Below are positions 20,740 to 21,395 of a stretch of DNA of 64,000 nt, piece after piece. The DNA lies in NCBI GenBank assembly GCA_965237955.1, contig OZ250169.1:3552001-3616000 (forward strand). Direction: 5' to 3'. Origin of the DNA: Candidatus Marinacidobacterales bacterium. GTDB lineage: Bacteria; Acidobacteriota; Vicinamibacteria; Marinacidobacterales; SMYC01. The notes beneath the pieces are model-generated. The model was not told the origin of the DNA. It was given only the letters and a program-made list of their open reading frames with translations, and did no database searches. Made by a program: the position numbers and the translations under genes. Every line of letters begins with the position of its first letter. The first letter of the stretch is position 1.

Positions 20740-21395
20740 CTAGTCCGTCTCGCGCGCCAGTCCTGTCCGCAGGATCTCCTCGACCTCGTCGGGATCGAAG
20801 TAGAACGGACCCATCCCACCTTTATAAATGATGCGGCCGTCGGTCCCGACGACGTAGAGTCGCTCCGGCCACGCCGCGTAGCACGCCATCGCTGTGTTGT
20901 TGATGTCGTCGAGCAGCGTTTCCGTCTCTCGACATCCATCTGGTCGACGAAGGCGCGTGCGAGCTCCCTGCGCTCTTCGGTGGTCGTGGGCTGGGTGTAG
21001 ACGACGCCACTCTCCTCGTTGGACTCCATCTGCCACTCGTCGTCGGGATGGGCTTCTTTGATGTACACGATGACGAAGTTCGCGACGTCGCTGTACTTCT
21101 TTTCCAGCTCTTCGATCTGCGCCAGCCTGGCGCGAAATGGTGGTCACGTGTAGCTACCGAACGTCAGCACGAGTGGTTTGTCGGCGTAGAGATCCGAGAT
21201 GCGATGCATCTGCCCACCGTCGGTCGCAAGTAGCTCGACATTTGGGGCCAAATCCCCAACCTGGAGCGACCCCTCGGAACGGATGTCGTACTCGTTGATA
21301 CGGATCCAGGCGCGTTTCTGGGCTTCCATGAAGCCCCAACCGCCAAGAGCCGCGACGATCAGCACCGCCAAAATGGCTCCAATCCACTTCTTCAT
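20740..21395 (-). CDS. Iodothyronine deiodinase-like selenoprotein (UGA=Sec at 21146-21144; 2-bp frameshift near 20927)
   Basis: KPLVLTFGSYT-UGA-PPFRARL...VYIKEAHPDDEW...YAAWPERLYVV...GGMGPF; GGAGG RBS; hairpin just after the UGA. Confidence 0.85.
21119..21143 (-). promoter_or_regulatory. Putative bacterial SECIS hairpin
   Basis: After UGA: CCACCAUUUC then GCGCCA-GGC-UGGCGC stem-loop with an apical G. Confidence 0.6.

Follow-up and report, generated by a model that had tools for sequence, protein, structure and literature searches.

Gene content of the locus

The window analysed here is a stretch of 64,000 nt from the genome of a Candidatus Marinacidobacterales bacterium (G000), assembled as one contig of 8.13 Mb that is 98% complete with 6.2% contamination. 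Its minus strand carries a gene for a deiodinase-like protein with the following features:

21395-20740, minus: deiodinase-like (PF00837) gene, almost certainly of a selenoprotein; 217 aa in its intact form, interrupted here by a 2-nt insertion
21406-21401, minus: Shine-Dalgarno-like AGGAGG, 5 nt before the ATG
21395, minus: ATG start
21383-21327, minus: hydrophobic helix, residues 5-23, predicted single membrane anchor
21146-21144, minus: TGA, codon 84, ending an 83-aa ORF (FGSYT-TGA) in the standard code
21133-21119, minus: bacterial SECIS-like hairpin, 6-bp stem GCGCCA/UGGCGC, GGC triloop
21065-21033, minus: YIKEAHPDDEW, start of the deiodinase-specific omega loop (Dio3 Tyr197, Glu200, His202, Trp207)
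20929-20925: TCTCT dinucleotide run with 2 extra bases; the frame shifts after residue 156
20871-20854, minus: WPERLY, region of Dio3 Tyr257-Phe258-Glu259-Arg260; out of frame in the window allele

Readthrough of the TGA gives PPFRARLAQ...VYIKEAHPDDEWQ..., a sequence that is sensible to residue 156 and nonsense beyond, while the expected C-terminus, ETETLLDD...CYAAWPERLY..., sits in another frame that closes at a TAG (20742-20740). Both halves of the gene match PF00837 (85.5 bits for residues 22-153 and 40.2 bits for the C-terminal part; cut-off 27), so that the deiodinase family assigned in a preliminary description of this DNA is confirmed. The same description, which named no strand, had correctly given the 83-aa ORF and its continuation PPFRARL...YIKEAHP, and had written the frame as running on to PERLY; both ORF and continuation lie on the minus strand, and the PERLY motif exists, but in the second frame, after the 2-nt insertion. 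The membrane anchor that it proposed agrees with the predicted N-terminal helix, which has a mean Kyte-Doolittle value of 2.25 across 19 aa and corresponds to helix 2-27 in a model of the intact orthologue.

No sigma-70-like promoter site was seen for the gene, and the one terminator-like match lies on the other strand at chance level. Three RNA runs (X17, X18 and X19) each yielded one near-identical contig of the gene (159-207 nt, depth 3-4). These contigs are discounted as evidence for expression because they were found using this very stretch, may derive from DNA and leave the insertion uncovered.

Inferred selenocysteine at codon 84

A complete set of genes for selenocysteine (Sec) insertion is present in the host genome. 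Profile searches for the genes named in the preliminary description detected selA (544 bits), selB (366 bits) and selD (275 bits), all above cut-off, and selC is represented by a tRNA-Sec (72.6 bits). SelD itself (C1:4040942-4041856, L008) is the Cys form (CGGCAAK); in its 750-aa frame, about 400 N-terminal residues make up a fused domain that by its sequence resembles a flavin oxidoreductase.

Homologous loci were pooled from several searches, in none of which the Sec column served as a filter; 46 could be aligned across that column, and removal of 5 duplicates left 41 distinct loci (one further locus, L053, matched residues 1-25 only). All 41 have TGA, never TAA or TAG, at the catalytic column, which in the window gene is codon 84 and aligns with Sec170 of Dio3. 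These loci span Acidobacteriota, Planctomycetota and others, and both halves of the gene are conserved in them. Cys occupies the same column in 67 of 67 longer, fused homologues and also in P0041. In the alignments, 41/41 TGA set against 67/67 Cys is the usual Sec/Cys pattern. Among 120 listed database matches of 315, 119 start downstream of the Sec column, because gene callers cut such genes at the UGA, and the lone full-length one has Cys.

PF00837 was matched in 21 of the 41 genomes of the same order but in none of 14 control genomes, and all 21 positive genomes are among the 40 of the order that have selA. In the host genome, 11 of 12 picks from a rough scan for TGA readthrough (155 candidates) fall in Pfam-matched proteins.

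We conclude that the UGA at codon 84 is almost certainly read as Sec, which would be inserted by the SelB route. The preliminary description had made this reading depend on Sec machinery in the genome and on Cys or Sec in the homologues; the machinery is complete and the homologues carry Cys or Sec at the column, so the reading stands. It is extremely improbable that the TGA is a true stop in a decayed or split pseudogene family: gene callers do split the gene, and the copies in the window and in a related genome (G013) are damaged elsewhere, but only TGA occurs at the catalytic Cys/Sec column in 41 loci of several phyla, and both halves have been kept.

Several other proteins of this genome appear to be selenoproteins. 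The readthrough candidates (L074-L083) include a molybdopterin oxidoreductase (formate dehydrogenase-like) and four AhpC/TSA types, one of them in two copies, as well as a rhodanese, a DsrE protein, DsbA-like and CMD/AhpD-like proteins, and a methyltransferase that, by its motif, we take to be arsenite methyltransferase-like. A multicopy TGA-plus-hairpin signal, with one copy at window position 48427, was rejected as the antisense shadow of a transposase; this multicopy element (47776-48858, minus; about 19 copies, IS110-type by reading) is a false-positive trap for selenoprotein scans. Another in-frame TGA was found in a gene for an FG-GAP/ASPIC-UnbV (CRTAC1-like) protein with a C-terminal WCVPC thioredoxin-like domain (C1:5942882, plus; L084/L087). 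Together with its relatives (L088-L108), this gene gave 22 matches in 14 of the 41 genomes; all 22 share the TGA column, and in 19 of them a G-loop hairpin of 6-10 bp follows 17-18 nt downstream. The frame in the host is 655 aa long, compared with about 920 in most kin, and its 5' part may be broken. Such a selenoprotein is not among the entries of Table 1 in a 2026 review (PMC13188914), nor did the literature search find one.

The SECIS-like hairpin

The hairpin GCGCCA-GGC-TGGCGC, whose presence confirms the preliminary description, begins 10 nt after the TGA, and its loop therefore lies 16 nt from the UGA. The bacterial SECIS consensus is given as a loop of 3-9 nt with a G, a stem of 4-16 bp, a spacing of 16-37 nt and an MFE of -7.5 or lower (PMC13188914). 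By hand check, the window hairpin lies within these limits, with a G-first loop of 3 nt, a stem of 6 bp, a spacing of 16 nt and -13.3 kcal/mol for the 42 nt downstream. Its stability was rejected as stand-alone proof of a SECIS element: the folding z-score is -1.16, with 25 of 200 shuffles equally stable, and an equal stem arises in 5.9% of synonymous recodings (p 0.059).

The hairpin becomes convincing only across homologues, where 38 of the 41 loci show, 15-24 nt downstream of the UGA, a G-first loop on a stem of 4 bp or more, compared with 12.4 expected; this is no independent test, as the range of 15-24 nt was picked after the folds had been viewed and the loci are kin. More telling than this count, to judge by the aligned loci, are the different stems in separate clades. 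A divergent clade (L039-L047, L049 and L052) has a distinct 7-bp stem, GAAGATC/GATCTTC, with a G-first triloop, mostly GGC, at 21 nt, and in locus L031 the stem is GCGCAGGC/GCCTGCGC. Pair counting over 18 near-clade sequences gave 86.8% paired positions, a value reached by none of 500 shuffles; a covariation analysis of the same sequences had a mixed outcome, as sliding the partner by -1 scored 0.292 versus 0.171 for the true register.

The two-nucleotide insertion

The frameshifted allele encodes a product of 240 aa that ends at 20673. An intact gene is found at locus L014 of genome G009, with 98.5% DNA identity to the window copy; it differs by 8 substitutions and a single 2-nt gap, has no other lesion, and lacks exactly the 2 nt inserted at 20925-20929. 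These are likewise missing from locus L020. None of the contigs listed over this site in public runs X2, X3 and X5 carries the insertion, but run X1 holds both forms, the inserted one in a 58-nt contig at depth 9 and the uninserted one at depth 3 with the same flank. The 58-nt contig spans 20899-20956, exactly the stretch covered by the 31-mers unique to the inserted form. At 20688 and 20901, X1 also has the letters of the window, unlike X2 and X3, and it departs from the window at 21205; X1, for which no platform is on record, is possibly the source sample of the assembly itself. As an independent k-mer assembly of X1 has both forms, the insertion is present in reads and not merely in one consensus.

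The insertion is probably a real, segregating allele. The preliminary description had left the choice between sequencing error and inactivation; the extra 2 nt are indeed there, and inactivation is the likelier of the two, given the depth of 9 versus 3 in X1. A sequencing or consensus error, with a copy that is intact in the organism, is unlikely. It would fit the dinucleotide run, the three runs and two loci (L014 and L020) that are without the bases, and the remainder of the gene, which is only 8 substitutions away from L014 and has no further lesion; moreover, indels are common in this genome, since frame changes were found at about 7 places among 132 orthologue matches (9 raw pairs, 3 of them at one place), or about 5% of the orthologues compared. 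The threefold greater depth of the inserted form in X1, and the private letters of the window at 20688 and 20901 that X1 shares, argue against such an error. Programmed frameshifting at this site was rejected, as the close relatives are all simply in frame, and we know of no slippery site that the insertion resembles. A second 2-nt difference from G009 lies at 20688, in a GA run of the spacer between the gene and the neighbouring sulfatase, where the window has the shorter form.

The window copy is thus probably inactivated by the insertion, which would swap everything past residue 156. As the W-P-E-R loop and the C-terminal strands and helix would all be replaced, no folded enzyme is expected from this allele, to judge from the model of the intact protein.

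The surrounding block

The gene is part of a block that is flanked on both sides by insertion sequences (IS):

18290-18893: left flank of the block, a multicopy insertion sequence reduced to a remnant with two inverted ends
19081-24767: 5.7-kb block with sulfatase, deiodinase-like gene and BNR/Vps10-repeat protein; 97% identical to G009, a genome of another genus
19134-20648, plus: sulfatase (PF00884), 504 aa, convergent with the deiodinase-like gene; inside the block
21508-24642, minus: Sortilin-Vps10/BNR-repeat protein, 1044 aa, upstream of the deiodinase-like gene and co-oriented with it; inside the block
24884-26292, plus: right flank of the block, formed by a multicopy insertion sequence that has terminal inverted repeats and lies in the opposite orientation to the left remnant

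The ORF of the right-flank element is of the HTH/integrase-core kind, with Pfam matches below cut-off. Farther out, the IS cluster has on its left an SNF2 helicase gene (13681-17310, minus; 912 aa) with a SWIM-domain partner and on its right a gene for an Mrr-type restriction endonuclease (26404-27291, minus), in surroundings that resemble a defence island.

Against the 97% identity of the block, the background identity of the host and G009 is 66% in the selA region and 75% in the EF-Tu region. The host has an intact paralogue of its own (L001, C1:7474999-7475541) with 77% DNA identity to the window copy, and in a DNA tree of 18 near-group loci, which left out 23 more distant ones, the window copy joins the two copies from genus g10 (100/100), apart from L001. 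Linkage to the BNR gene is also found in G013, the other g10 genome besides G009, at 91% identity. In G013 the deiodinase-like gene (L020/L035) breaks off after ...KGGMG, where unrelated sequence continues, so that this gene copy has apparently been lost a second time. Many 1-5 kb pieces of a 40-kb G009 region (C2:4725000-4764999; L072, L073) are scattered over the host genome at 85-98% identity, and they include several BNR/Vps10 gene copies. Judging from these pieces, a large mobile gene pool is common to the two genera, whose core DNA is 66-75% identical.

The simplest reading of these comparisons is a recent horizontal transfer of the block from the g10 side, which we regard as probable. 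An assembly chimera, in which co-occurring g10 DNA was joined via shared IS copies, is improbable: copies of this IS in many relatives are 95-98% identical, the contamination of the host assembly is 6.2% and no listed contig spans the block together with host backbone, but the host genome is a single 8.1-Mb contig, contigs of X1 cross both block-IS junctions with 0 differences, the block in G009 has non-IS neighbours on the sulfatase side (L034), and the many other short G009-like segments (85-98%) fit repeated exchange. Loss of the window copy would be neutral, since the host keeps its own intact paralogue. The locus also exemplifies a selenoprotein gene that probably moves between genera together with its internal SECIS element, and an allele that has probably lost its function and seems to be segregating since the redundant copy arrived. 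Among 29 homologous loci read by eye, we saw no conserved operon or partner gene.

Fold and active site of the intact protein

Among solved proteins, the nearest sequences are mouse Dio3 (E 6.5e-28) and Dio2 (2.1e-22), with thioredoxins reaching only 1e-4. An AlphaFold2 model of the L014 protein, built from 49 sequences (pLDDT 88.8, pTM 0.85), retrieved Dio3 and Dio2 first in a fold search (39% and 29% identity), followed by ResA, DsbE, Bcp and 1-Cys peroxiredoxin (Prx); the ResA/Prx-type rows have 14-19% identity and a target-normalised TM-score of up to 0.84. These matches support a deiodinase fold, and the intact protein is predicted to share with Dio3 (4TR3/4TR4) and Dio2 (9H48) the Trx/Prx fold with an omega-loop insertion.

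Residue correspondences were numbered from the alignment to Dio3. The residues kept are Ser167, Thr169, Sec170, Pro171, Tyr197, Glu200, His202, Trp207, Gln218, Arg225, Glu259, Arg260 and Pro277. Loss of activity has been reported for mutants of Glu200, Thr169 and Ser167, and the equivalent of His202 is essential in Dio1 (PMC7506546). The corresponding His116 of the bacterial protein is invariant, in 120 of 120 matches listed, 39 of 39 loci and 67 of 67 longer homologues.

The replaced residues are Cys168 (Tyr82 in the bacterial protein), His219 (Pro), Cys239 (Thr157), Tyr257 (Trp175), Phe258 (Pro) and Arg275 (Met194). His219 is conserved in mouse Dio1-3, and loss of its equivalent in rat Dio1 raises KM, not Vmax; in simulations, Arg275 and Tyr257 of Dio3 hold the carboxylate of T4 (PMC7506546). 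In the bacterial family, the His219 column has Pro in 120 of 120 matches listed and in 31 of 39 loci, with His only in 7 distant loci, and Cys is found at the position of Cys168 in 11 of 39 loci. The protein is probably not a thyroid-hormone deiodinase, because His219, Arg275, Tyr257, Cys168 and Cys239 are not kept. As far as the alignment tells, the catalytic core is retained, and the residues that hold the amino-acid end have gone. A reductase of small aromatic compounds that lack an amino-acid side chain would fit this pattern better than an enzyme for thyronines or halotyrosines. The gene is, on this sequence evidence, a new member of the bacterial deiodinase-like family, outside the animal DIO1-3 group.

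The active site reads U-P-P-F, and the protein has no CxxC motif. Cys171, which is clade-specific and absent from Dio3, is found in 117 of 120 matches listed and in 15 of 39 loci and is a candidate resolving residue. Several relatives have members of a second deiodinase-like Sec subgroup (L025-L028 and L031-L033). Its motif is T-U-P-Y-C (UxxC), its C-terminus is longer, and a membrane anchor is not evident.

Proposed function

On balance, we favour the view that the locus holds a Sec-read deiodinase-like gene, likely an imported duplicate that is probably inactivated, and that its intact form is a membrane-anchored thioredoxin-fold reductase, most likely an aromatic dehalogenase. In the proposed mechanism, SelB-GTP-Sec-tRNA would dock on the G-first triloop, which lies 16 nt beyond the UGA, and insert Sec84 into a 217-aa protein anchored by helix 5-23, with the catalytic domain predicted to lie probably outside the cytoplasm. 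The Sec84 selenolate would be held by a network of Ser81, Thr83, Tyr111, Glu114 and His116, with the His116-Trp121 omega loop as a roof, as in Dio3. It would attack the halogen of a halophenol or a halogenated diphenyl ether, not of an amino-acid-bearing thyronine or tyrosine, and an external thiol or Cys171 would then return the oxidised Sec to its reduced state.

Sec-dependent reductive dehalogenation of haloaromatics is our preferred assignment over an oxidant reductase, although we would put it slightly below an even chance. In its favour are the near-invariant deiodinase-specific loop, the absence of CxxC, the incomplete peroxiredoxin motif, and three genes of the reductive dehalogenase family (TIGR02486) above cut-off in the host genome; against it are the five changed Dio3 functional residues (Cys168, His219, Cys239, Tyr257 and Arg275), the lack of conserved neighbours, the wide occurrence of the family, its fusions to TPR, EF-hand and hydrolase domains, and the redox function suggested in 2005 (PMC1088965). 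The TIGR02486 genes lie at C1:6005297, 3360123 and 7880419, and two of them have identical scores, suggesting a recent duplication. Co-occurrence with reductive dehalogenases was rejected as support: the family is carried by 8 of 9 genomes with such a gene and by 13 of 32 without, a difference confounded by kinship and genome size. That no reductive dehalogenase exceeds the cut-off in 13 of the 21 carriers also speaks against the assignment. The link to halogenated tyrosines drawn in the preliminary description is not supported as stated, given the replacement of Arg275, Tyr257 and His219; in addition, PF04820, the flavin-dependent halogenase family, has a single match in the host genome, which is weak and fragmentary.

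A one-selenol peroxidase or oxidant reductase, similar to 1-Cys peroxiredoxin or glutathione peroxidase and acting on peroxides, hypohalous acids or oxidised envelope thiols, is a distinctly possible alternative. Deiodinases have the Trx/Prx fold (PMC11592359), ResA, DsbE, Bcp and 1-Cys Prx come next after Dio3 and Dio2 in the fold search, most other selenoprotein candidates of the host are of AhpC/TSA, DsbA or AhpD type, and the TPR, EF-hand and hydrolase fusions point the same way; in one relative (L021) the gene is located, by reading of the sequence, beside an msrA-like ORF, and a redox role was proposed by the authors of the 2005 report (PMC1088965). However, the motif PxxxTxxU, characteristic of Sec peroxiredoxins (PMC13188914), is only half present: the bacterial protein has L-T-F-G-S-Y-T-U, with Leu77 for Pro and Ser81 for Thr. 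Likewise, the near-invariant His-x4-Trp loop suggests a defined pocket for a small molecule, and no Prx or ResA row reaches more than about half the identity seen with Dio3. Protein-thiol exchange as the function is doubtful.

If dehalogenation is the function, the natural organohalogen cycle would include a route that depends on selenium and needs no cobalamin, and the family would be the likely root of thyroid-hormone activation. A broader scenario, in which an aryl-halide dehalogenase ancestral to the animal deiodinases is traded between genera of these Acidobacteriota on IS-flanked sulfatase/BNR cassettes as a kit for sulfated halogenated organic matter, is speculative and rather improbable.

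Comparison with known systems

Bacterial deiodinase-like selenoproteins are not new, contrary to the hidden selenoprotein announced in the preliminary description: Sec- and Cys-containing members with bacterial SECIS elements were described in 2005 from the Sargasso Sea (PMC1088965), and the GOS survey of 2008 counts 22 more (PMC2398784). In the 2026 review the family is grouped with those whose function is largely unknown and has the motif UxxC in Table 1, and the word Acidobacteri has no match in the portion of that text available (PMC13188914). No biochemical assay of a bacterial member was found in the literature search, which left most subscription journals outside. The find is mostly a correct re-annotation of a known family, since gene callers truncate its members at the UGA, and both the intact paralogue (C1:7474999-7475541) and L014 are better test objects than the broken window copy.

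The window gene agrees with the known bacterial deiodinase-like selenoproteins in its Pfam family, its catalytic in-frame UGA, its SECIS element inside the ORF and the side-by-side occurrence of Sec and Cys forms. In contrast to the UxxC of the family table, the window clade has U-P-P-F without a second Cys, and UPYC is found in the subgroup of relatives; unlike the known members, the window gene is duplicated, probably imported and frameshifted. The NCBIfam model NF038285 (deiodinase_rel) is matched at E 6.8e-55 over profile positions 177-340, with 186.9 bits against a cut-off of 250; the bacterial protein lacks the first 176 positions.

With ResA/TlpA/DsbE and the Bcp/1-Cys peroxiredoxins the protein shares a thioredoxin fold, which in these families is found in membrane-anchored or soluble form, but its U-P-P-F site differs from the CxxC or UxxC of ResA/TlpA/DsbE. 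To our knowledge, none of these families carries the deiodinase His-x4-Trp loop. Finally, the N-terminal hydrophobic anchor is common to Dio3, Dio2 and the bacterial protein, whereas the SECIS element of the animal enzymes is located in the 3' UTR and that of the bacterial gene inside the ORF, in a host where no thyroid hormone is expected.
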